DNA from: an uncultured Thermodesulfobacteriota bacterium | GTDB taxonomy: Bacteria; Desulfobacterota; DSWW01 | DNA: 28,361 nucleotides | Direction of reading: 5' to 3' | Assembly: GCA_964609935.1 (NCBI GenBank) | Contig: CAZSUQ010000001.1 | Location: 1 to 28,361, forward strand | Part shown: positions 3,277 through 27,670 of the stretch, piece after piece | Position numbering within the stretch: position 1 is the stretch's first letter | How the letters are laid out: each line of letters starts with the position of its first letter | The notes under the pieces: model-generated | Seen by the model: the letters and a program-made list of their open reading frames with translations, nothing else | Databases searched by the model: none | What the model was told of the DNA's origin: nothing | Position numbers and translations under genes: made by a program

Positions 3277-4992
3277 TCAGCGGGGCTCCCATTTCCTTCC
3301 GGCCCAGATCTCGAAGCCGTCCACAGCGTTGGCCACGCCTACCAGGAGGCCCCACCGCGTGGACAGGAGGTTTCGGATCCCGTAGTTGTCATGCTCCCCG
3401 AAGCCCGTGTCGCTGACCTTGATCCAGTTGATACCGTCCCGGGTCCTCCACAGGTCAAAACCGGTGGGGCCCGCGATCAGGTCCACGAGCCAGGCGATCT
3501 CCGGAGGGATCTCTCCCCCGAAGAACTCGGCAATGGCATCCACGCCCATGCCGTTGAAATCGCAGGTTCCCACGTAGAACCACCGGTGGTGTTCACCCAT
3601 GTACCAGCTGTAGAAGTTCGAAGGTTGATCAAAGCCCGGTCCGATGCCCGACAGGGGCTCCACCGGGTCGGGCCCGATGACGCCCGCTTCCCGGGTCTTG
3701 CCCACTACCAGTTCCACATTGTCGTTTGCATCCAGGCGGATGATCTCGGTGCCCTGGATCGCCGCTCCGGTCCCAAAGAAGGGCGGATACGTGAACGTAC
3801 CGATGTAGACGTGATCCCTGAACGGCCGGATGGTCATGAATCCCATGCCGCTGTTGCCGAATCCCCCCTCCACCACGCGCGTCCAGTTCCCCGGCGCCGG
3901 GTCCGTTGTCTTCCAGCACTCCGGTCCTGTCTCGTTGTTGTTGGTGATGGCATAGAGGTGATCGTTGAAAACGGCGAGCTGCCAGATGGAATGGTTGTCC
4001 GGCGTGTCCATCTCGAAGATCTCGAATTGTGAGGTGGCATCCGGAACCGTGTCCCATTCGGCTGCAACCCACAGGGTGGTTCTGTCGTTGGTGAGGATCG
4101 ATCGGGTCTGTCCAGCGCCGGTGCCCGTAAGGATGCGAACCTGTCTTCCCACATGGGAGAAGGGCATCCACCGCCCGGTATCGTCCGTGAGGGTGTCTGT
4201 CGTGGCCAGGTCCACGGTTCCCGACGCATAAACACCGCTGTGAACACCGCCGCCGGAGCTCACGAATCCCGTGCTGTTGGCCTGTTCCCAGGCAGCGGGA
4301 TCGGTGGAGGGATCTGCCGAGCAGAAGATCATGCATGCGCTGTCCGAGGAGATGTAAAGCTTGTCCCGGAAGACCTGGGCCCCGCGGAAGCCGCCCTGTC
4401 CGGCCACGGCCCCCATTCCGGGGGGCGATGCCTTGTGGAAATGGTCGCCGTCCGTGGTCTTGTAGACATAAGCACCTTCAAGGCCGTTTCCTGTCAGGTA
4501 GAGGGCATCATCGAACACACGGGCTCCCCGGAACCCGCCCACCTGTTCATATGGTGGATCCCAGACGCGCTCCCAGGCCCACGTGCCCTTGCCCCTGTTG
4601 TATGTGCCGCGAAACACGTGGACCGGGCTGTTGGTGGCCTCGTAATAGGGCTCCCAGCTGGCGAGGTCCCTCGGGTCGCCCCACAGGTCGTTCCTGCACT
4701 GCCATCGTACCGGAGGGCGGTACGGGATGAGCGGGCAGAGCAGTTCGATCCATGCCATGAGAGGTGCCTGGATACACAGCGCGTTACCAAGGGTGCCCAC
4801 GTAGACCTCGGGCGTCCCGTCACCGTCGCCGTCGAACTGCTCCATGGCCCACGGATAACTGTTGAGGCGGTCGTCCACGCCTTCACCCGCGATCCTTGAA
4901 AAATCCTCTTCTTTCAGGCCGGTATTGCAGGCAAATCCCTGCAACAGGCAGAGGATGACCACAACCTGCTTCAAGAAAGCTCTCTTGTTCAT
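3277..4992 (-). CDS. Exported beta-propeller-type putative lipoprotein with an inserted ~70-aa module
   Basis: Signal peptide MNKRAF...QGFAC. Recurrent blade-like repeats GFRGARVFDDALYL, GFRGAQVFRDKLYI, SIWQLAVFNDHLYA, GFMTIRPFRDHVYIGT and FDLWRTRDG. GGAAGGA RBS precedes ATG 4992. The fold is inferred from the repeats. Confidence 0.7.
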   Translation of the reverse strand: MNKRAFLKQVVVILCLLQGFACNTGLKEEDFSRIAGEGVDDRLNSYPWAMEQFDGDGDGTPEVYVGTLGNALCIQAPLMAWIELLCPLIPYRPPVRWQCRNDLWGDPRDLASWEPYYEATNSPVHVFRGTYNRGKGTWAWERVWDPPYEQVGGFRGARVFDDALYLTGNGLEGAYVYKTTDGDHFHKASPPGMGAVAGQGGFRGAQVFRDKLYISSDSACMIFCSADPSTDPAAWEQANSTGFVSSGGGVHSGVYASGTVDLATTDTLTDDTGRWMPFSHVGRQVRILTGTGAGQTRSILTNDRTTLWVAAEWDTVPDATSQFEIFEMDTPDNHSIWQLAVFNDHLYAITNNNETGPECWKTTDPAPGNWTRVVEGGFGNSGMGFMTIRPFRDHVYIGTFTYPPFFGTGAAIQGTEIIRLDANDNVELVVGKTREAGVIGPDPVEPLSGIGPGFDQPSNFYSWYMGEHHRWFYVGTCDFNGMGVDAIAEFFGGEIPPEIAWLVDLIAGPTGFDLWRTRDGINWIKVSDTGFGEHDNYGIRNLLSTRWGLLVGVANAVDGFEIWAGRKWEPR

Positions 4993-5059
4993 GGTTGTCC
5001 TTCCCCCTGGTTGCACCTTATTTCAGAACCGGATGTTTCTACTTGACAGCCACGAAGAC

Positions 5060-5097
5060 GTATAGTAGATATATCTATACATGCAGTAAACACTGCA
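5060..5097. promoter_or_regulatory. Clustered palindromes, candidate operator(s)
   Basis: Perfect 12-bp palindrome TAGATATATCTA (5066-5077), overlapping GTATAG-N9-CTATAC (5060-5080), and TGCAGT-N4-ACTGCA (5082-5097). They lie between the divergent lipoprotein and tetR genes. Confidence 0.45.
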
Positions 5098-5112
5098 AAT
5101 AAGGTAATTTGT

Positions 5113-5141
5113 ACTTTACTCAATCTCCTCCAGGCTGTCAA
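5113..5141 (-). promoter_or_regulatory. sigma70-type promoter for the beta-propeller lipoprotein gene
   Basis: Minus strand TTGACA (5141-5136), 17-nt spacer, TAAAGT (5118-5113). Confidence 0.6.
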
Positions 5142-5258
5142 GGCAGAAGTTCCAGGAGTTTTACCCGCATATGCATGAAGTCTTCCACTGCTCTTGCGAT
5201 GAAATTTCGCGCAATATGCGGTCTGACTCATTGTCATTAGCGAATCGAGGCCGGCCCC

Positions 5259-5879
5259 ATGGAAACGGAAAATATCGTTCAGAAAACAAAGGACAAGCTG
5301 GTTGAGTACGAGAAGAGGCACCAGGGGATCCTGAAAGCCGCCATGCGGCTGTTCAATGCCAACGGCTATGCTGCAACAACCACAGCGAGCATTGCCAGGG
5401 CCGCGGGCGTTACGGAAAAGACCATGTACAGGCATTTCCAAATCAAGCAGGCCCTGTTTACCGAGTGCGTGTTGTCCATCACGAATGACCTGATGGGGAT
5501 ATGGCAAAAGGAGCGGGAAAGGAACAGGGGTGACAGTCTTGCCTACCTGAAGGCCGTGGCAAGCGCCTATGTGCAATTCGTGATCAACAACCCGGACAAG
5601 TCCATGTTCCTTGTCCACCTGTACAGCTACAGGGGGATCCCTGGAATGGACGAGGGCTTCAGGAGTTTTGTGCAGGATCGCATCAACGAAACCGAAAGGG
5701 TCATTCTCTCTTTGAAGGAGAAGGGCGTGGTCAAGAGCGACCTCCACCCCCGCGTGCTCGCCGGGGTGTTCATCGGTCAGTATTTCACCAATGTCTTTTT
5801 GAATGAGTTCCTTGGACCCGAGCTTTTCAACCCCGATGTCGTCGTCGAGCTGACCAAGGGCCTTTTGCGGATCGATTGA
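5259..5879 (+). CDS. TetR/AcrR family transcriptional regulator
   Basis: N-terminal HTH ILKAAMRLFNANGYAATTTASIARAAGVTEKTMYRHF; 206 aa. Confidence 0.95.
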   Translation: METENIVQKTKDKLVEYEKRHQGILKAAMRLFNANGYAATTTASIARAAGVTEKTMYRHFQIKQALFTECVLSITNDLMGIWQKERERNRGDSLAYLKAVASAYVQFVINNPDKSMFLVHLYSYRGIPGMDEGFRSFVQDRINETERVILSLKEKGVVKSDLHPRVLAGVFIGQYFTNVFLNEFLGPELFNPDVVVELTKGLLRID

Positions 5880-5896
5880 CGGCTCCAGCCCGCAAC

Positions 5897-5938
5897 TTGC
5901 ATGAAAATTCGCCAATCGCAGTAAAAGGCTTCATGCAA
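5897..5938. promoter_or_regulatory. Inverted repeat between tetR and the arylsulfotransferase gene (operator or hairpin)
   Basis: TTGCATGAA (5897-5905) / TTCATGCAA (5930-5938). TGCATGAA also occurs at 5172-5179, upstream of tetR. Confidence 0.4.
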
Positions 5939-5972: not shown

Positions 5973-7361
5973 ATGAACAGAAGGGCAGTGTCTTTGTTGA
6001 GCATCGTCATGTTTACGCTTGTTGCGCTCACCGGTTTCGGGTGCAGCCTGCCGGTTCCCGGCGTCAGCGTCTACAAGCCGGAGAAGTGCGACAACGGCTA
6101 CACCCTGTTGACCTCCTTTGGCGCTCACGAAAGCCCGCCCGGCTCGGGCATCTACCATGGGGCCCTTCTCATCGACATGGAGGCCAGGCTCATCAATGCG
6201 TGGGAGATCACGGGAATGCCGGCCAAGATGCTCCCGGGCGGCCATGTAATGGGGTACGACGCCTTCAGGGACGACGGCAGCGGTCATCAGGACTGCAATG
6301 CTTTGGTGGTTCAGGACTGGTTCGGAAACGAGGTGTGGAGGTGGGACCAGTGGGATGTGGATGATCATGGAAACACCATCAGCCGGGGGCATCATGACTT
6401 TCAGAGGGAAGGCAACCCGGTGGGCTATCCGGTTCCGGGCATGGATCCCCTTGTTCACAGCGGCAAGACCCTCATCCTGAGTCACGAGAACGTGGTCAGG
6501 CCGGACATCGCGCCGTGGATCATCGAGGACGATGTTCTCCTCGAGGTGGATTATGCAGGAAACATCCTCTGGGAATGGCATGCGGTTGATCACCTCGATG
6601 AGTTCGGTTTCACCAGTAAGGCCAGGGCAGCCCTGCAGAGCGTACAGGTGACGGTCCCTGAGATCATGGGCGGGGGAGCCGATGTCACGGACTGGCTGCA
6701 CGTCAACAGCGCGAGTTACCTGGGCCCCAACCGGTTCCATGACCAGGGGGACGCCCGCTTCCATCCGGACAACATCATCGTGGACGCACGCAGCGCCAAC
6801 ATCATCTGGATCATCGAAAGGGCCACAGGGGACATCGTGTGGAAGGTGGGGCCGGACTACGGCTTCTTCCATCCGGAGAGAAAACTCGGTCAGATCATCG
6901 GGCAGCACCACGCCCACATGATCCCCAGGGGGCTTCCCGGCGAGGGGAACATCCTGGTTTTCGACAACGGCGGAGGGGCAGGGTTCGGCAAGCGGCTGGG
7001 CAAGCCCGTGTTCCCGCACAAGTATCGATTCTATTCAAGGGTGATCGAATTCGACCCCACCGATCTCAGCATCGTGTGGGAGTACGAAAGGCAGGAGCCT
7101 GCTCCAGGAGAGTACTACATGTTTTACAGCTACTTCATCAGCGGTGCGCAGCGGCTCCTGAACGGGAACACGCTCATCACCGAGGGCTCCACCGGAAGGG
7201 TGTTCGAGGTCACCGCCTCAGGCGAACTCGTCTGGGAGTACGTCTCCATCTACCACGATCTGTCCTTTGACACGATGCCCGGTCTTCTGCGTTTCGAGAA
7301 CGACGTGTACCGTGCCTACCGGGTCCCTTACGACTCCATTCCCAGCGAGTACCTTCCCTGA
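5973..7361 (+). CDS. Arylsulfate sulfotransferase (ASST) family putative lipoprotein
   Basis: HHDFQREGNPVGY, DWLHVNS, DARS, GQHHAH, LVFDNG and FYSYFISGAQRLLNGNTLITEG. The ASST-type His/Asn/Arg/His catalytic set appears intact. Signal peptide ends in GFGC. Confidence 0.9.
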   Translation: MNRRAVSLLSIVMFTLVALTGFGCSLPVPGVSVYKPEKCDNGYTLLTSFGAHESPPGSGIYHGALLIDMEARLINAWEITGMPAKMLPGGHVMGYDAFRDDGSGHQDCNALVVQDWFGNEVWRWDQWDVDDHGNTISRGHHDFQREGNPVGYPVPGMDPLVHSGKTLILSHENVVRPDIAPWIIEDDVLLEVDYAGNILWEWHAVDHLDEFGFTSKARAALQSVQVTVPEIMGGGADVTDWLHVNSASYLGPNRFHDQGDARFHPDNIIVDARSANIIWIIERATGDIVWKVGPDYGFFHPERKLGQIIGQHHAHMIPRGLPGEGNILVFDNGGGAGFGKRLGKPVFPHKYRFYSRVIEFDPTDLSIVWEYERQEPAPGEYYMFYSYFISGAQRLLNGNTLITEGSTGRVFEVTASGELVWEYVSIYHDLSFDTMPGLLRFENDVYRAYRVPYDSIPSEYLP

Positions 7362-7365
7362 GGGG

Positions 7366-9450
7366 TCAGCCCGTCTTTCTCAGTCGTCTCCGGATGACGG
7401 GGATGGCTCCCAGGGACACGAAGAGCGGACCGAGAAGGTTCAGCGCGTTCGTAACGGGAACGTGGTTGGCGTCCATGGAAGAAGCCGGCGTGCCCCAGGG
7501 AGGGGTGTTGGGGTCGCAGTCGTCATCGATCCCGTTTCCGGGGATCTCCGGAACGCCGGGGCTCACGTCGGGATTCCCATCGTTGCAATCCATCTCCGGG
7601 TGCGGGCATGACAGGGACGCCGGGTCCCCGTATCCGTCCCCGTCGAGATCCGTGCAGTCCAGGTAGGGGGCAAGCGGGTCCGTGTACCAGGAGGCCTCCA
7701 TGGGGCAGATCTGCGCGGGCGCCCCGGGATCGATCTCGCTCCCCTGGTAGGAGAGGCATTCAGGGCAGGCCGTTTCCATGCCCTGCCGGCCGTAAACCAG
7801 CAGGCAGGCGCCGCATGCAAAGGCGTCGCTCGATGGATTTGCGCAGTGCTTGCAGTCCTCGCTCTGGTCCTCCACGAAGTACCCTGTGGGCGTACCCTGC
7901 GGCTCGAGAAGCTGCCAGCCGTCGCGGAGCCGCCGGTTTGCATACGTCATGCCCCACATCCCTTCCTCGTTGCACAGGTAATCGCCGTTCGCGTCACAGA
8001 CCTCGCCCACGAGGTTCAAGCCCCAGGAAAGGGCGAACTCCCGTGTTGCCGTGATCCCGGCCGTGAGGAGGTCTGCGCCCGCATTCCGCTCATGCAGCGC
8101 CTGAATCATGGGGTGCTCGAAGTCGATGCTGCCGATGAGATCGATGACGCGCTGTTCCAGGAAGGCCTCCACGTTGGGGCAGTACACGTCGGCCGCATAG
8201 GCGCACAGGGGGTCTGTTCCCGGGCTCCTCGCATAGGTTCTTGCCGGGTAGTCTGTTTCGTGCAGCATCCACACCGTGACCGCACCGGCCCCGTGGCTGC
8301 AGCCCGTGGCCGAGTATGTGGGGCCGTCGATCAGCGCCTGCACCGGGCTCGTTGTCATCAGGTAGTCCTTCACCGACAGGAACTGGGAGGTCTCGGTGGG
8401 GTACGTGGCCGTGTCCAGACCGCCACCCTCGCAGTAAGGGTCCACGGTGACCACCATGAACCCCCGGTCCGTCCAGGGGCTCACACCGGCGTCATAGTCA
8501 TCCGCACAGGCGCCCCCGCCGCTTATGCTGAACAGCAGCGGACAGGGGGTTGCCGGGGTGCAGGTCTCGTCATCGTATGCCACCTTGAAGCGCGTGGGCA
8601 CCGGGTGCGTGAAGTCGCGGGGGGAGGTGATGAGCACCTCTTCGAAGCAGGTCAGCCCGGCGGCGCAGTAGGTGGGGTGGAAGTCGAACATGTCGCCCTC
8701 GCCCGGAGCGTGGTTGGTGATCAACACCACGTCGATCAGGCCGTCGAACCCTTCGGCGATCTTCACCCCATACCCCTGGGGGGGCTCGAGCCCGGTGACG
8801 TCCACCTCGGCGGCCACCTCGCCGTCCAGGAACAGGCGGACAACAGGCACTACGCCGCTGGTGTCCACGGAGAGGGTCAGATGGTGGTATGCACCGTCAG
8901 CGGGCCAGGAAACACCCGTGGGGATGGAAACCGTTCCCCCGCCGCTGCCGGGCCCTTCGACGACGAACTCGCCGGCAACGAGCTTCACATAATGTGCGTC
9001 GTCGGCCACGAGGATATGGCCTGAGCTTGCATCACGCGCCTTGAGCCATGCGAACAGGGTCATGATCCCTGACCCGGAAATGCCGTAGTCCGGGCACTCG
9101 ATCTCGATGGAGCCGTCGCCGGCCGGAATATCCGCGGCACGCCCGTAACGCCCTTCGGTGATCGCGCTTCGCCGCGCCTCCCCGGTGAGCAGGGCCGTGC
9201 ATTGCCCGATCCCCAGGGAGGAGTTGTTGTTCTGCATGTTGTTCAGTTCTGCGAACCCGTTGTGAGCGCCCGCGCCGTCGATTTCGTCATCAAAGCTCAG
9301 CTCCACCCGGCGCCCCGCGTGTGCAGGATCAAAGGGTGTCAAAGCTGCGGCGAAGATGATCAGAACGCCCAGAAACATGGCGAACCCTCGATATCTTGCA
9401 ACATGCTTGCATGTGCTGTTGATTCCGGCTCTTGCAGTTTCCCTGATCAT
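7366..9450 (-). CDS. Secreted multidomain protein: LamG/ConA-like domain + alpha/beta-hydrolase-like domain + MopE-type metal-binding repeat + C-terminal membrane anchor
   Basis: Signal peptide ending AHA. LamG-like segment (TLFAWLK, YHHLTLSVD, RLFLDGE, FDGLIDVVLI). ISGGG and G-C-S-H-G elbow at 8290-8304. CNDGNPDVSPGVPEIPGNGIDDDCD at about 7513-7587. Hydrophobic tail followed by RRRLRK. AGGAGG RBS. Confidence 0.75.
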   Translation of the reverse strand: MIRETARAGINSTCKHVARYRGFAMFLGVLIIFAAALTPFDPAHAGRRVELSFDDEIDGAGAHNGFAELNNMQNNNSSLGIGQCTALLTGEARRSAITEGRYGRAADIPAGDGSIEIECPDYGISGSGIMTLFAWLKARDASSGHILVADDAHYVKLVAGEFVVEGPGSGGGTVSIPTGVSWPADGAYHHLTLSVDTSGVVPVVRLFLDGEVAAEVDVTGLEPPQGYGVKIAEGFDGLIDVVLITNHAPGEGDMFDFHPTYCAAGLTCFEEVLITSPRDFTHPVPTRFKVAYDDETCTPATPCPLLFSISGGGACADDYDAGVSPWTDRGFMVVTVDPYCEGGGLDTATYPTETSQFLSVKDYLMTTSPVQALIDGPTYSATGCSHGAGAVTVWMLHETDYPARTYARSPGTDPLCAYAADVYCPNVEAFLEQRVIDLIGSIDFEHPMIQALHERNAGADLLTAGITATREFALSWGLNLVGEVCDANGDYLCNEEGMWGMTYANRRLRDGWQLLEPQGTPTGYFVEDQSEDCKHCANPSSDAFACGACLLVYGRQGMETACPECLSYQGSEIDPGAPAQICPMEASWYTDPLAPYLDCTDLDGDGYGDPASLSCPHPEMDCNDGNPDVSPGVPEIPGNGIDDDCDPNTPPWGTPASSMDANHVPVTNALNLLGPLFVSLGAIPVIRRRLRKTG

Positions 9451-9701
9451 GGATCCGTCCTCCTTCCCTGTCTTGGTCGTTGATTGGACACCAGGAAGAT
9501 CGCCGACAGGCAGGCATGGACGCCGAAGCTGATCGCGCGCAACTTCGCCGGCCTCCTGCTCCGATCATATCCCTTCAATGGTTTCTTATAAAGTAAAACA
9601 CAGGAAAAAGGGGAAGGTTCTGATCTTCCTGCGGAAAGTGTAGAATAGGTCAACATGGCAGGGTCATCTTCAGCAATGAAACGCGTATCGGAGAATGCAT
9701 A

Positions 9702-10355
9702 ATGTTTCCATTCATGAGAACGATAAGATCGGTGACAGGGGCCAAGCTTCTTGGCCTGATGTTTGCCTGTGCCGCGCTCGCGGTGGCGGTTGTGCTGGTG
9801 GCGGTGGGGGCCCTCACCTGGCTCACGGCCCACCTGGTGGACATCCAGATCGGATGGCTGGACAGCCTGGTCAACTGGCTCACAGGCGGCATTCTGGGCG
9901 TTGCCGGCTGGTTCATGCTGCCCGCGATCATTGTGCTCGTATCCGGCATGTTTCAGGAAAAGACGATCCACCGGGTGGAGCTTGCCTACTACCCGGATGA
10001 GGTGCGTACCGAGGAGCCCGGGTTCTGGCCCGACCTGGCGCATGACATCCGGTTCACCTTGAGGGCGTTGATTCTCAATGTCCTGGTCCTGCCTCTGTAC
10101 CTCCTTGGTATCGGCTTTGTCATATCCGTTCTCCTCAACAGCTACCTTTTGGGTCGCGAGTTCTTCGAAGGTGCTGCCGGTTATCACATCGGGAAGCCGG
10201 AAGCCAAAACCATCGGTCAGCGGAACAGGGTCGCGGTCTACGGGGGCGGTCTCGTGATCACGCTGATGGCCCTGGTGCCCGTGATGAACCTCTTCGTCCC
10301 GATCTTTGCCGTCGTCTGGATGGTGCATGTTTATCACGGGTTGAAGAAGGGATGA
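9702..10355 (+). CDS. EI24/CysZ-like membrane protein
   Basis: Several hydrophobic helices, FQEKTIHRVELAYYP and NSYLLGREFFE, typical of EI24-domain proteins. Confidence 0.75.
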   Translation: MFPFMRTIRSVTGAKLLGLMFACAALAVAVVLVAVGALTWLTAHLVDIQIGWLDSLVNWLTGGILGVAGWFMLPAIIVLVSGMFQEKTIHRVELAYYPDEVRTEEPGFWPDLAHDIRFTLRALILNVLVLPLYLLGIGFVISVLLNSYLLGREFFEGAAGYHIGKPEAKTIGQRNRVAVYGGGLVITLMALVPVMNLFVPIFAVVWMVHVYHGLKKG

Positions 10356-10365
10356 CCGCCTGCAT

Positions 10366-10400
10366 GCCGTCTCTGCAGGAAGGTCGCAGAGGCGGCTGTT
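10366..10400 (+). terminator. Hairpin after the EI24 gene, possible terminator
   Basis: GCCGTCTCTGC-N9-GCAGAGGCGGC (11 bp, one G.U pair), followed only by TGTT, a weak U-tract. Confidence 0.35.
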
Positions 10401-10608
10401 AGAGATTTCACGAAACGTGTGCTCTCCCCGGGAAAATGAAAACTCGAATCGCCTGTTCACGGCCGAGCCGACTTTCCGTCTCCGCAGCTTCTGCTCATTA
10501 CGTAAGCTTCCCGGTTCATTCCTCACCCTGAATTCGGGTAGAAAAACCGGCTTCTTTACACTGCCGGACCTGCCCCACCTGTCTTCTGAAACCCTCCTGA
10601 AAATTCCC

Positions 10609-10638
10609 TTGACAAGTCCCGGCGGATTCGGGTACAAA
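10609..10638 (+). promoter_or_regulatory. Possible sigma70 promoter of the IclR operon
   Basis: TTGACA (10609-10614), 18-nt spacer, TACAAA (10633-10638). The -10 match is imperfect. Confidence 0.4.
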
Positions 10639-10645
10639 ACAGGCA

Positions 10646-10682
10646 GTTGCATATAATGATATTGAGTTGCAAATAGCGCAAC
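10646..10682. promoter_or_regulatory. Candidate tandem IclR operator
   Basis: GTTGC-AAATAGC-GCAAC (10666-10682) is preceded 20 bp upstream by a degenerate copy GTTGC-ATATAAT-GATAT (10646-10662), just before the IclR start. Confidence 0.55.
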
Positions 10683-10698
10683 ATAGATCAGGGAGAGC

Positions 10699-11484
10699 AT
10701 GGAACAAAAACCCAGCACACACGCTGCCGTGGAGAAGGCCTTGAGGATCCTGCTCGCCTTCACACCTCAAAACGAAGGCCTGGGGACCCAGGAGCTGAGT
10801 GAAAAGCAAGGGCTCCACAAGTCCACCACCAACCGCCTGCTCAAGGTCCTTGAGAAACACGGGTTCGTTGAACAGGACGCAGAGACGAAGAAATATCAGC
10901 TGGGGAGATCCGCGGTTCAGATTGGAAGGGCTGTTGTACAGTCCCTGGACACACGTCTGGTTTCCATTGCAAGGCCTTATGTCCACAACCTCCGCGACCA
11001 GCTGAACGAGGGCGTGGCCCTGGAGGTGTGGGCCGGGGACACCACGGTTTTGTCCTACGCAGTGGAAGGGCCCCGGCTCGTCCGGGTCTCGGCCGACCTG
11101 GGGCAGCGAATGCCCGTGCACGTTGCCGCCGGAGCCAGGGCGATCATGGCCTTTTTGCCACCGGAGATCGTGGACGAGCTGCTCAGGCAACAGTTCACAC
11201 GCTACACAAGAAAAACGGTGACCGATCCGCGTGTCATCAAGCGCAGGCTGAAGGATGTAAGGAAAGCCGGGGTGGCATTTGATTACGGCGAGTTGGACGC
11301 GGACATGCAGGGTATGGCGGCCCCGGTCTTTAATTACAGCCAACGGCCCGTGGCAGCCATTGTGACCGTGGGGCCGGCCTCACGCATGAAGGCAGTCATG
11401 GGATCCAAAAAAACGACTTTCCTGCTAAAGGAAACCGCAGCGAACATTTCGTCCAGGCTTTACTATGACAGGGAGGAAACATGA
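10699..11484 (+). CDS. IclR family transcriptional regulator
   Basis: AVEKALRILLAF, HTH LSEKQGLHKSTTNRLLKVLEKHGFVEQD...KYQLG, and effector domain AGARAIMAF...MAAPVF. Confidence 0.95.
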   Translation: MEQKPSTHAAVEKALRILLAFTPQNEGLGTQELSEKQGLHKSTTNRLLKVLEKHGFVEQDAETKKYQLGRSAVQIGRAVVQSLDTRLVSIARPYVHNLRDQLNEGVALEVWAGDTTVLSYAVEGPRLVRVSADLGQRMPVHVAAGARAIMAFLPPEIVDELLRQQFTRYTRKTVTDPRVIKRRLKDVRKAGVAFDYGELDADMQGMAAPVFNYSQRPVAAIVTVGPASRMKAVMGSKKTTFLLKETAANISSRLYYDREET

Positions 11485-24791: not shown

Positions 24792-25472
24792 CTACCTGAG
24801 TGCCGGATCTCGATAAAAACGCTTGAGCCTGGAAGGAGGAACACCAAGGTGGTACAGGAAGACGAGAATCGTGTTCCGTATCTGCTGCCTTGCCACGCCG
24901 TGGGTGATGAACCTCCTTGCCGCGCTCACCACCGGGGTGCGGATCTTGAGAAACCCGCCCATGTTTCTGAGCCGCTGCTGGATTTCAATGTCCTCCATGA
25001 TCGGGATGTCCCTGAAGCCCCCGATACGCTCGAAGGTTCGCCGGCGCACGAACAGCCCCTGGTCGCCGTAGGTGAAAAGCATGTGATTGATCCGGCTGAA
25101 GAAACAGATGGCGCGAAGCAGGGGGGTCTGCCGGTCAAACCCCAGACAAAAACTCCCCCCGATGATTTCTCCGGATGAGAATGCCGAACGGATCAGTTCC
25201 AAACCGTTGGGCGGCAGGCGGGTGTCCGCGTGCAGGAAGAGGAGGATTTCCCCCTTTGCTAGCACGGCTCCGGCGTTCATCTGACTGGCTCGTCCCCTTG
25301 CTCCCTCCACACACCTCACCGCAGGGAACCCCTTCACGATCTCCAGGGTCCCGTCTTCGCTTCCCCCATCAGACACAACGACCTCGAAACCGCCTTGCTG
25401 TTCCATCAAGGCGTTGAGAGAGGAGGCGATGAAGTCGGCCTCATTCAGGCTTGGAATGATAATGGAAATCAT
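24792..25472 (-). CDS. GT2 glycosyltransferase, TIGR04283-type (arsenosugar / rSAM-selenodomain-associated family)
   Basis: ISIIIPSLNEA, SDGGSEDGT, GRASQMNAGA, LLFLHADTRLP, YGDQGLF and IMED. The family is assigned from recognised motifs; no HMM was run. Confidence 0.8.
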   Translation of the reverse strand: MISIIIPSLNEADFIASSLNALMEQQGGFEVVVSDGGSEDGTLEIVKGFPAVRCVEGARGRASQMNAGAVLAKGEILLFLHADTRLPPNGLELIRSAFSSGEIIGGSFCLGFDRQTPLLRAICFFSRINHMLFTYGDQGLFVRRRTFERIGGFRDIPIMEDIEIQQRLRNMGGFLKIRTPVVSAARRFITHGVARQQIRNTILVFLYHLGVPPSRLKRFYRDPALR

Positions 25473-25547
25473 TTCGAATCACGATAATCGGCTCTGTTCG
25501 TTGTTCCGTATCGAGCCCTTGTATGATGAAGGCCTTCCTGTCCCGGC

Positions 25548-26306
25548 CTATTCAACCCTGCCTCCAAAAGCGAAGATCGTCCCCTGAATGATGGGCGTGA
25601 TGGCCGCGATCTGCTCGAACGTGAAGTAGGCGCCGCGTATCCTGTGGGTGCTTTTTCGATATTCCCGTGCGTGTTCTTCTGACCAGAAGAATACACACTT
25701 CTGTCAGAACGCGTGGATGATGCTCGGGTCCTCCAGCGCGTAGAGGTCCACATCCGGTACAAAGACGAGGGGATCCGCCCCCTGCTCCCTGACGCTGTAT
25801 TTGAGCTCACTGTCTATTTCCACGTGCATCTGCCGGGAGCAGTGAGCGCATTCCGTCCCCACCAGGACCGAAAGGGGCTCTCCACGCAATTGCCCTTGCA
25901 CGAAGGGCGACGCAAACGCGTCGGCCGCTCAGGCCGCGTAGAGCTGTTCCCCCGTGCTGAACGTGAGGTGGTGCGGCGTGGGTTCAACGGTCACCGGATA
26001 CGCCCAGACGACTTCCCCTTCACGGTTTCGGTAGAGGAACGTCATGTGCGCTTCCATCTCTGCCAGGATCTCGGGAACGCGTTCCGCGGGCATTCCCAGG
26101 TTGTCGGCGATGAATCCCGGCGATAGGGGTTGCCCGGCACGGGGAAGCTCCCTGACGACAAAATGATGAACCGTCCGATGTTCATCGGTCATGAACCCGG
26201 TTTCGGCATCGATTTTCTTCTTCATTCTGTGAATCTGTTTCTTCCAGAGGGTCGGCGGAACCTGGAGCATGATCCTCCAGAATCCGCTCATGAGCTTGTT
26301 GCTCAT
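25548..26306 (-). CDS. MerB (alkylmercury lyase)-like protein with two predicted selenocysteines (U126, U201), 252 aa
   Basis: One frame runs from ATG 26306 to TAG 25550-25548, with in-frame TGA at 25931-25929 (LYAA-U-AAD) and 25706-25704 (HAF-U-QKCVFFWS). These align with MerB LYAWCALD and SFCCHVHFF. SECIS-like hairpins follow both TGAs. Confidence 0.82.
25669..25698 (-). promoter_or_regulatory. Bacterial SECIS-like element after the second UGA
   Basis: UGA-CAGAA-GUGUG-(UA bulge)-UUCUUCU-[GGUC]-AGAAGAA-CACGC. The upper stem starts 12 nt after UGA and the apical loop contains GGU. Confidence 0.75.
25884..25921 (-). promoter_or_regulatory. Bacterial SECIS-like element after the first UGA
   Basis: Upper stem GCCCUU-[CGUGC]-AAGGGC with its loop 26 nt after UGA, and lower stem ACGCG/UGCGU. 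A competing hairpin GACGC-GUUU-GCGUC is possible. Confidence 0.55.
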
Positions 26307-27670
26307 GGCATGTCTCCCCTTGTTGAGAATCGCAGTACAACAAAGCCAAGTACAGCAGAAAGGATGGACGCTGCAAAGATACCCACCTTGGAGTACATGA
26401 GCATCTGAGGGTCTTCAAAGGCCAGGCCGTTGATGAACAGGGCCATGGTGAAGCCGATCCCAGCCAGACAGGCTACTCCAGCGATCATGGTCCAGGTAAC
26501 CCCCTTTGGAATCTCCGCGAGGCCGAGTCTGGCGGCACACCATGAAAAGAGAAAGATTCCCACAGGCTTTCCGAGCAAGAGCCCGAGGAAGACGCCCATG
26601 GGTAACGGATTGGAAATCAACATCGTCAGGTTCACATCCGTGAGATGAACACCTGCATTGGCAAAGGCAAAGACAGGGATCACGACGAAGCTGATCCAGG
26701 GATGGAGGTCATGAACAAGCCGGTTCAGGGGGGAGATGGCGCGCGTGATGTCCCGGGCTTCCTTCACCAGATCCGGGGCGCTCTCCGGGTGGACGAGTTC
26801 CTGGTCATGATCTACCCGTACGGACTGAACAACCTTGTCGGTGAGTCTTTGCAGGGAGTCGGCAAGAACCGGTGGCCGGACCCAGTTTTCAAGGGGTGTG
26901 AGAAGCCCCAGAAGGACGCCGGAGATGGTGGGGTGAATGCCGGACTTGAGGAACGAAAGCCACACCAGGAAACCCACGGCGCCGCTGACCCAGATTCGCC
27001 GCACGCCGATGTACCGGACAAGGACCATGAGGCCGAAAGAGAGGGCCGCTGCACCCAGGGCCAGGCCGGAAAGCTGCTCGGTGTAGAAGAAGGCGATCAC
27101 CAGGACCGCGCCCAGGTCGTCCACGATGGCCAGGGCGAGAAGAAAGACCTTGAGCGAGACAGGCAGGCTCCGGGTGAGGAGTACCAGGATCCCCACGGCA
27201 AAGGCGATGTCCGTGGCCATGGGAATGCCCCAGCCCTTTGCGCCGGGTTCGCCGAGATTGAACAGGAGAAAGATGGCCGCCGGAAGGATCATCCCGCCCA
27301 GGGCCGCGGCAATGGGCAGAACCGCCTTCTTGGGTGTGGAGAGCTCGCCGATGGTGAGCTCCCTTTTGATCTCCATCCCGATGAAAAAGAAGAACAGGGT
27401 CATGAGGGCGTCGTTGATCCAGTGAACCAGGGTGTTGTCCAGGACAAAAGATCCGATCTGGAGCTTGCATCGCATGTGAATGAGATGGTGGTACGATTCC
27501 CACCAGGGGGAGTTGGCCCAGATCAGTGCGGCACCCGTGCTGAGCAGGAGAAGGATGCCCCCCGCGGACTCGGTCCGGAGGAACTGCTCCACCGGATAGG
27601 CAAGGTACTGAACCGCTTTTGCAACCGTGTGGTCAGGGCCTGACTCGATGTCGTTTTTCGTGTCTTTCAT
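26303..27670 (-). CDS. nhaA: Na+/H+ antiporter NhaA (455 aa)
   Basis: HWINDALMTLFFFFIGMEIKRE, GWGIPMATDIAF, LAIVDDLGA, GKPVGI and GIGFTMALFI. AGGAAGGA precedes ATG 27670. Confidence 0.96.
   Translation of the reverse strand: MKDTKNDIESGPDHTVAKAVQYLAYPVEQFLRTESAGGILLLLSTGAALIWANSPWWESYHHLIHMRCKLQIGSFVLDNTLVHWINDALMTLFFFFIGMEIKRELTIGELSTPKKAVLPIAAALGGMILPAAIFLLFNLGEPGAKGWGIPMATDIAFAVGILVLLTRSLPVSLKVFLLALAIVDDLGAVLVIAFFYTEQLSGLALGAAALSFGLMVLVRYIGVRRIWVSGAVGFLVWLSFLKSGIHPTISGVLLGLLTPLENWVRPPVLADSLQRLTDKVVQSVRVDHDQELVHPESAPDLVKEARDITRAISPLNRLVHDLHPWISFVVIPVFAFANAGVHLTDVNLTMLISNPLPMGVFLGLLLGKPVGIFLFSWCAARLGLAEIPKGVTWTMIAGVACLAGIGFTMALFINGLAFEDPQMLMYSKVGIFAASILSAVLGFVVLRFSTRGDMP

Follow-up and report, generated by a model that had tools for sequence, protein, structure and literature searches.

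A gene on the minus strand (25548..26306) of a contig from an uncultured Thermodesulfobacteriota bacterium (GenBank assembly GCA_964609935.1, contig CAZSUQ010000001.1, positions 1 to 28,361; this 28,361-nucleotide stretch is hereafter called the window) very probably encodes a MerB-fold selenoprotein with two selenocysteine (Sec) residues. The two in-frame TGA codons that would specify them stand at the positions of the two metal-ligand cysteines of MerB. A preliminary description of the same DNA, made from the sequence alone, had proposed that both metal-binding thiols are replaced by selenols; this interpretation is strongly supported, all the computational tests that were run being in its favor. 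The best explanation as a whole, that of a two-Sec MerB-type protein with a predicted soft-metal(loid) site, is highly likely.

The interval 26306..25548 is a single frame of 252 sense-or-TGA codons that opens with ATG and closes with a TAG stop (25548..25550), orthologues stopping within a few codons of the same point via TGA, TAA or TAG. Its internal stops are exactly two, both TGA: codon 126 (25931-25929; hereafter site 1) and codon 201 (25706-25704; site 2). They split the frame into the open reading frames 25929..26306 and 25704..25901 and a 51-codon tail, just as the preliminary description had it, its pieces and quoted peptide strings being correct. GC content by codon position shows that all three pieces carry the coding signature of the window's confident genes. 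TGA terminates these confident genes and never occurs inside them, which indicates the standard code, and a scan of the window for other TGA codons flanked on both sides by a coding signature found none convincing besides the MerB-like gene. A Shine-Dalgarno-like AGGGGAG (26314..26320, minus strand), putatively functional, lies 7 nt 5' of the ATG, which overlaps the TGA stop of the upstream gene nhaA in the sequence ATGA (26306-26303).

Family membership was assessed on the read-through protein with both TGA codons written as Cys. It scores 53.6 bits with the Pfam MerB model (PF03243), whose gathering threshold is 27, and the match runs from residue 106 to 235, that is, across both TGA codons; the same match is precomputed on full-length homologues. 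Only three NCBIfam models match the protein, all well under their cut-offs: the MerB equivalog NF009710 (57.8 versus 193), the lyase_MerB model NF033555 (49.7 versus 200), and the model of SaoL, a MerB-like selenoprotein discussed below. The 32 relatives scanned likewise fall under the MerB equivalog and SaoL cut-offs.

The fold was examined on a homologue, P0001, which is 62% identical to the window protein. Its confident AlphaFold2 model (predicted local distance difference test 89.5, predicted template modelling score 0.87) finds MerB and MerB2 as its sole significant matches in the PDB; the top 11 matches are all MerB or MerB2, with E-values of 1.8e-10 to 1e-6 and, for the best of them (E about 1e-10), target-normalised template modelling scores of 0.77-0.80. 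The N-terminal part also resembles MarR-type winged helices, with weaker structural matches.

In MerB, Cys96 and Cys159 bind mercury and Asp99 protonates the leaving carbon. Sequence and profile alignment to the solved MerB and MerB2 proteins makes codon 126 (25929..25931) the equivalent of Cys96, aligned with the Cys of LYAWCALD and FAWCAIS, and codon 201 (25704..25706) the equivalent of Cys159, aligned with SFCC and GGTCKQ; U126 and U201 also align with the two Cys of MerB2. The Asp129 codon GAC (25920..25922) corresponds to the proton donor Asp99. Cys153, in the Cys153-x-x-Cys156 pair encoded by TGC GCT CAC TGC (25839..25850), corresponds to the buried Cys117. The placement of both TGA codons at the MerB ligand positions, and of an Asp three residues past the first, had been claimed beforehand and is borne out: the Sec126, Asp129 and Sec201 positions are invariant in 84 of 84 loci, Asp129 also in alignment A1, in which Cys153 is invariant and Cys156 at least 90% conserved. 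The family motifs are Y-A-A-U-A-x-D-A-F-A-T-P-F-V at site 1 and I-I-x-A-F-U-[KR]-x-[SC]-V-F-F-[WR]-S-E-E-H-A at site 2, the residue preceding U201 being Phe in 83 of 84 genes and Leu in the other. The UxxC motif noticed earlier after the second TGA is indeed present in the window gene, but it is not a general feature of the family, being found in only 11/84 orthologues against 68/84 with UxxS.

How relatives of the gene appear in the databases bears directly on the reading of the TGA codons. The 141 relatives obtained in a protein search fall into three length classes: those of ~250 residues show 'W' at both sites, those of ~200 residues have Cys at site 1 and end exactly before site 2, and those of ~140-150 residues end exactly before site 1. 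Tryptophan at these positions in homologues, which the preliminary description had named as evidence that would speak against it, is apparent only, the 'W' residues being the outcome of a wrong code applied to TGA codons on short contigs. The calls in question are Joint Genome Institute (JGI) calls on short metagenome contigs (P0001-P0039; L003 515-1273), which read TGA as Trp presumably because of the gene caller's switch to code 4, and which yield 'full-length' database proteins with a false Trp at both catalytic sites. Taken at face value, these calls would suggest that the organisms concerned read TGA as Trp or Gly (genetic code 4 or 25). This explanation is scarcely credible, since TGA serves as terminator in the window's confident genes and is absent from their interior, the carrier lineages are ordinary code-11 bacteria, and Cys is what natural variants have at the two sites and what MerB has at the aligned positions.

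A scan of genomes, one per species, found a relative in 271 species-level genomes. The best 80 relatives, which are full-length matches, come from hosts that include Syntrophales, Smithellaceae, Desulfomonilaceae, Desulfobacterales, Nitrospirota, Anaerolineae/Chloroflexota and Abyssobacteria, among others; OY821638.1, OY820932.1 and OY764159.1 are examples of Smithellaceae and Syntrophales chromosomes that carry the gene. TGA occupies both sites in 84 of 84 orthologous genes, whose hosts include Thermodesulfobacteriota, Nitrospirota and Chloroflexota, in contrast to the true terminators of these genes, which are mixed (TGA 46, TAA 19, TAG 17). The two sites lie 75 codons apart in 80 genes and 74 codons apart in four. 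The ratio of nonsynonymous to synonymous substitution rates (dN/dS, Nei-Gojobori) comes to 0.18 for the segment ahead of the first TGA, 0.20 for the middle segment and 0.18 for the one that follows the second TGA. Homologues have TGA, or more rarely TGT/TGC, at these positions, with conservation that continues past each TGA, and the earlier argument that two chance nonsense mutations at exactly these codons are improbable is vindicated by the contrast between the fixed internal TGA codons and the mixed real terminators.

These data discriminate between a recoded gene and two simpler accounts of its in-frame stops. According to the first, the UGA at site 1 is a real stop, so that the product is only a 125-residue N-terminal winged-helix fragment and the rest consists of untranslated remnants or separate small genes. 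All standard gene callers give this model, and Sec insertion is inefficient in model bacteria, which makes a truncated by-product probable, especially when selenium is scarce. As a full account of the gene it is nevertheless very unlikely: purifying selection acts on both downstream segments just as it does on the first, they lie in frame, complete the MerB domain and include the second catalytic position, TGA is the only codon met as an internal stop, never TAA or TAG, and the variants with a Cys codon read straight through. According to the second account, the gene is a pseudogene with two nonsense mutations or the product of a sequencing or assembly error, and two in-frame stops in 252 codons do have the look of a classical pseudogene. 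Hardly any probability attaches to it, given the same TGA codons in 84/84 orthologues from several phyla and a dN/dS of about 0.2 throughout. As to error, contigs of four other metagenome samples carry the window gene without any difference over the bases that they cover; three of them span both TGA codons while the fourth ends between sites 1 and 2. An assembly artefact is thereby excluded, and the misread TGT or TGC envisaged in the preliminary description was not seen in the contigs from other samples, which keep the TGA codons.

The size of the family became apparent in an exhaustive search of 50%-identity representatives, which gave 914 matches, mostly fragments of 125-126 residues over profile positions 1-125. 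The predominance of fragments that end at site 1 indicates that the family is large and almost always cut there by gene callers. Cys at site 1 (TGT/TGC) combined with TGA at site 2 occurs in P0034, P0036, P0040 and P0050 (loci L086-L089), and Cys at site 2 in P0121 and P0125, both of which have Ser at site 1. Judged from these sequences, the predicted double-Sec form is the norm in the family and Cys at either site the exception.

Other residues are met at the two sites in a few relatives. P0015 (L084; 2376-2378, 2598-2600) has GGT and TTA there and P0046 (L085; 1995-1997) has TGG at site 1, the hairpins described below being largely intact in both; these rare sense-codon variants are probably inactive or erroneous, and could be copies in decay, paralogues without activity or misread bases. 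A divergent clade of full-length paralogues (P0124, P0127, P0132, P0143, P0178, P0182 and P0205) has neither Cys nor Sec at the ligand positions (for instance ADE, AGG or ADG at site 1), carries F-C-S-E-E-H-A in place of F-W-S-E-E-H-A, and may be a non-catalytic or differently catalytic branch.

Insertion of Sec in bacteria depends on a hairpin downstream of the UGA, the selenocysteine insertion sequence (SECIS) element, and hairpins were judged here by the published rules for bacterial SECIS (bSECIS) elements (PMC13188914). Each of the two TGA codons is followed, within the coding sequence, by its own hairpin satisfying these rules. The first predicted element (25891..25920, minus strand), identified by comparative pairing and codon fixation, consists of a main hairpin, GCCCUU-CGUGC-AAGGGC (25908..25892), with a stem of 6-7 bp and an apical loop that begins 26 nt past the UGA, preceded by a 3-bp mini-hairpin (25920..25911); together they have a folding energy of -16.7 kcal/mol. 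Over 81 sequences, 95.6% of cells are paired, and in two of them a G-C pair is replaced by a compensatory U-A pair via synonymous changes. The second predicted element (25667..25698, minus strand), identified by comparative pairing, z-score and codon bias, has a 7-bp upper stem, UUCUUCU-GGUC-AGAAGAA (25691..25674), on a lower stem of 4-6 bp, and a loop that begins 19 nt past the UGA; its folding energy is -14.2 kcal/mol (z = -3.4), and 97.1% of cells are paired over 82 distinct sequences. Its closing pair (columns 22/27 of alignment A3, window positions 25685 and 25680) is U-A in 64 sequences, C-G in 15, U-G in three and unpaired in none. The C-G version couples TGG->CGG, which replaces Trp by Arg in the FF[W/R]SEEH motif, with the synonymous change TCA->TCG, and the exchange of one residue for the other with the pair indicates that an RNA base pair drives this amino-acid polymorphism.

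Codon usage reflects the same constraint. Inside the hairpins, Pro is encoded by CCC in 83/84 cases (33% elsewhere in the same genes), Val by GTG in 84/84 (38%), Gly by GGG in 84/84 (28%), Gln by CAA in 70/84 (31%) and Phe by TTC in 252/252 (62%), while Ser is encoded by TCA in 64/84 and TCG in 20/84, versus 8% and 16% elsewhere. Synonymous sites are frozen inside both hairpins. A scan of positions 25400-26500 with Rfam, at E-values up to 10, found no SECIS family and gave three chance matches to small nucleolar or small RNAs, far under threshold; Rfam contains no model of this type of SECIS element.

The closest precedent for the window protein is SaoL (NF040728), described as a MerB-like organometallic lyase selenoprotein. 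Its single Sec forms part of a C-U dipeptide at the Cys159 equivalent, the residue at the Cys96 equivalent is Cys, and its gene belongs to a nine-gene locus, the SAO locus, that includes an ATP-binding cassette importer (SaoB/P/X), an efflux pump, SaoE, SaoC and SaoT (Haft & Gwadz; bioRxiv 10.1101/2022.07.06.499078). The two have in common the MerB superfamily, Sec at the Cys159 equivalent, the retained Asp99 equivalent, database entries truncated at UGA, and a distribution limited to anaerobes; the substrate of SaoL is unknown. These shared features, together with a weak match of all 32 members scanned to the SaoL hidden Markov model (HMM), could mean that the window protein is simply the SaoL orthologue of its lineage. 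That identification is highly improbable. The window protein scores 40.7 against a cut-off of 140, and the best of the 32 members (E 1e-15) is still far under it. The family has predicted Sec at both ligand positions, where SaoL keeps a Cys at the Cys96 equivalent, and Phe precedes the second Sec in 83/84 genes, so that the dipeptide is F-U and never C-U. Its members are of ~250 residues, with an extra N-terminal segment of ~40 residues, versus ~213 for the SaoL of C. difficile. Finally, they are stand-alone genes, often behind a MarR or MerR regulator, in place of the nine-gene locus, and neither the window nor the set of nearest neighbours in the 83 other loci includes any SAO gene. The distinction from SaoL drawn in the preliminary description is therefore upheld by the sub-threshold HMM score and by F-U in place of CU.

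MerB itself (EC 4.99.1.2; plasmid R831b, PDB 3F0O/3F0P) and MerB2 (PDB 5C17) share with the two-Sec proteins the fold, the Pfam family and the matched catalytic positions. They differ in sequence, identity being only 16-20%, and in the active site, where the two-Sec family would have selenols for both ligand thiols and lacks the vicinal Cys160. They also differ in genetic context, the two-Sec family lacking the merA, merR and merT/P operon environment, and in their hosts, which are aerobic mercury-resistant bacteria for MerB and strict anaerobes for the two-Sec family. Known bacterial proteins with two Sec residues resemble the family in requiring two Sec insertions and in that the residues are thought to serve as metal ligands. 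They belong, however, to other folds and families, none of which was matched in the NCBIfam scan, and their Sec pair sits in one short motif (UxxU, CU), whereas in the MerB-like family the two residues are 75 positions apart, each with its own putative SECIS element, and are expected to meet only when the protein is folded.

No NCBIfam 20.0 model covers the two-Sec MerB-like proteins. Nothing in the 2026 catalogue, which covers 119 prokaryotic selenoprotein families, corresponds to them, SaoL being its only MerB-like member; none of the families of Haft & Tolstoy 2025, as listed in the 2026 review table, is MerB-like; and in the searchable literature on MerB relatives with two Sec residues only SaoL was found. 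The earlier suggestion that this version is undescribed thus agrees with the model collection, the catalogue and the searchable literature. Because the putative two-Sec proteins fall under the MerB equivalog and SaoL cut-offs and have neither mer nor SAO context, they are filed here as a separate family within the MerB superfamily and among predicted bacterial selenoproteins.

Several observations weigh against a two-Sec protein of the MerB type. The genes selA, selB, selC and selD were not found within the 28-kb window. No tRNA-Sec was found in the window, which has no tRNA at all, nor in 60 related loci, where one tRNA-Ser was the only tRNA, but with flanks so short this absence says nothing either way. 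Taken alone, hairpin 1 of the window sequence is no more stable than shuffled sequences (z = -1.1), and support for this predicted element is comparative only. The four genes examined that have Cys at site 1 also preserve hairpin 1 down to the nucleotide; a SECIS element should be dispensable there, and a pure SECIS role does not readily account for the retention. The structural model of P0001 was built with Trp at both sites, through the database mistranslation, and so says nothing on active-site geometry. No mer operon, merA, merT/P or transporter adjoins the gene in the window or in the 83 other loci. Lastly, mercury-selenium bonds are very strong, which makes turnover uncertain and product release from a diselenolate doubtful.

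Two of these points can be set beside further observations. Decay of the site-1 hairpin in the Cys-at-site-1 genes had been expected as an internal control and was not seen in L086-L089: the orthologues in L086 (6376-6435), L087, L088 and L089 keep the hairpin, with a compensatory U-A pair in L088. Such a hairpin behind a Cys codon would reflect either recent Sec-to-Cys switches or a second role of the hairpin. With respect to the selenocysteine machinery, one carrier, the Syntrophaceae metagenome-assembled genome that holds L011, has a GRDB-family gene (8129..9013, plus strand; PF07355, 51 bits) 2.4 kb from the MerB-like gene. It contains an in-frame TGA at 8651, in a TPA-U-PFCC motif, followed by a hairpin. 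This gene probably encodes another unannotated selenoprotein and lends indirect support to the use of Sec in a carrier genome.

The proposed product is a 252-residue cytoplasmic protein of MerB fold, with Sec for both metal-ligand cysteines and the catalytic Asp kept. Each UGA would be recoded separately, with SelB and Sec-tRNA(Sec) brought to the arriving ribosome by that codon's own hairpin, as is established for bacteria, and two Sec insertions per messenger would give a full-length protein of ~28 kDa; when selenium is limiting, termination at the first UGA should give the 125-residue winged-helix fragment. Sec126, Sec201 and Asp129 would form a MerB-type site binding a soft metal or metalloid, and this site would either cleave a carbon-metal(loid) bond by protonolysis or act as a very tight trap for the metal. 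The default candidate substrate is organomercury, with organoarsenic, tin or lead compounds as alternatives. The protein would act as a stand-alone detoxification enzyme, often behind its own MarR- or MerR-type regulator and outside any mer operon.

The chance that the protein is indeed a lyase is put at somewhat less than even. A genuine two-Sec selenoprotein could do other things: it might form a diselenide/diselenol redox couple, or serve as a metal chaperone, sensor, sink or stoichiometric trap, and I regard a non-lyase function of this kind as possible but rather unlikely. Consistent with it are the absence of mer genes and transporters noted above and the affinity expected between mercury and selenium, which on general chemical grounds argues against turnover. 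Most predicted bacterial selenoproteins, moreover, are redox proteins (2026 review), and the paralogue clade without Cys or Sec at either position keeps the fold signature, which suggests that the scaffold serves other purposes as well. On the other hand, the Asp that is the proton donor in MerB is invariant in 84/84 and would be unneeded by a plain redox couple or a chaperone, there is no redox motif of the CxxC/UxxC type (the second position is UxxS in 68/84), and the closest characterised relatives are all lyases.

In the window, the MerB-like gene follows the Na+/H+ antiporter gene nhaA (26303..27670, minus strand; TIGR00773, 418 bits versus a cut-off of 254; JGI call of 455 residues), whose stop overlaps its start. 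It is itself followed, after a 75-nt gap in which no terminator-like site was found, by a gene for a family-2 glycosyltransferase (24792..25472, minus strand) that matches TIGR04283, 'arsenosugar biosynthesis', with 230 bits versus a cut-off of 182. The gene order is nuoG-N, nhaA, the MerB-like gene, the glycosyltransferase, a flavodiiron protein and thiO/S/G/E, an arrangement that is private to this lineage and differs from the 83 other loci. In these, the nearest upstream gene encodes a MarR-type regulator in 19/83 and a MerR-family regulator in 16/83, mostly on the same strand (for example L034 4463-4909 and L027 4352-4921, where the window has nhaA instead), and these neighbours suggest effector-inducible detoxification. 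The downstream gene is variable (a thioesterase in seven loci, ArsA and CutA1 in single cases). An arsenic link was considered as a conserved context and rejected, since glycosyltransferase, arsenic, mercury or S-adenosylmethionine-dependent methyltransferase neighbours are not conserved across loci (one ArsA, scattered methyltransferases); the arsenosugar-type glycosyltransferase is a single-locus hint of organoarsenic chemistry. Elsewhere in the window, a 694-residue ORF (7366..9450, minus strand) has a MopE-type putative copper-binding motif. It adjoins a 462-residue ORF of the arylsulfotransferase family (5973..7361, plus strand), and the large ORFs 3277..5016, 4989..5915 and 9447..10763 near it have no Pfam match.

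In the protein collections searched, members of this family either stop short at residue 125 or 200 or show a wrong-code 'Trp', and through such truncated or mistranslated gene calls a protein of at least 271 species-level genomes would have been overlooked as a selenoprotein. Its two predicted SECIS elements also provide a case of RNA structure dictating protein sequence, Trp or Arg following the base pair. Selenols in place of both thiol ligands of a MerB-type site would be unprecedented among the MerB structures matched; such a double swap should alter metal affinity, nucleophilicity and pH dependence, and would amount to a natural experiment on why cells pay for selenocysteine.

The carriers (Syntrophales, Desulfobacterales, Desulfomonilaceae, Nitrospirota and Anaerolineae) live anaerobically in sediments, aquifers and digesters, settings with organometal(loid) cycling. 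No enzyme is known to account there for mer-independent methylmercury degradation or for anaerobic organoarsenical demethylation. It is tentatively proposed that the two-Sec proteins, with a diselenolate active site of Sec, Sec and Asp, may be the first enzyme family of this kind in nature. They would be carbon-metal(loid) lyases that work independently of oxygen and are widespread among the anaerobic lineages dominating mercury-methylating sediments and aquifers. If this were true, the protein could be a missing enzyme of mer-independent anaerobic methylmercury demethylation or else an anaerobic carbon-arsenic lyase; the window gene lies directly upstream of an arsenosugar-family glycosyltransferase gene.

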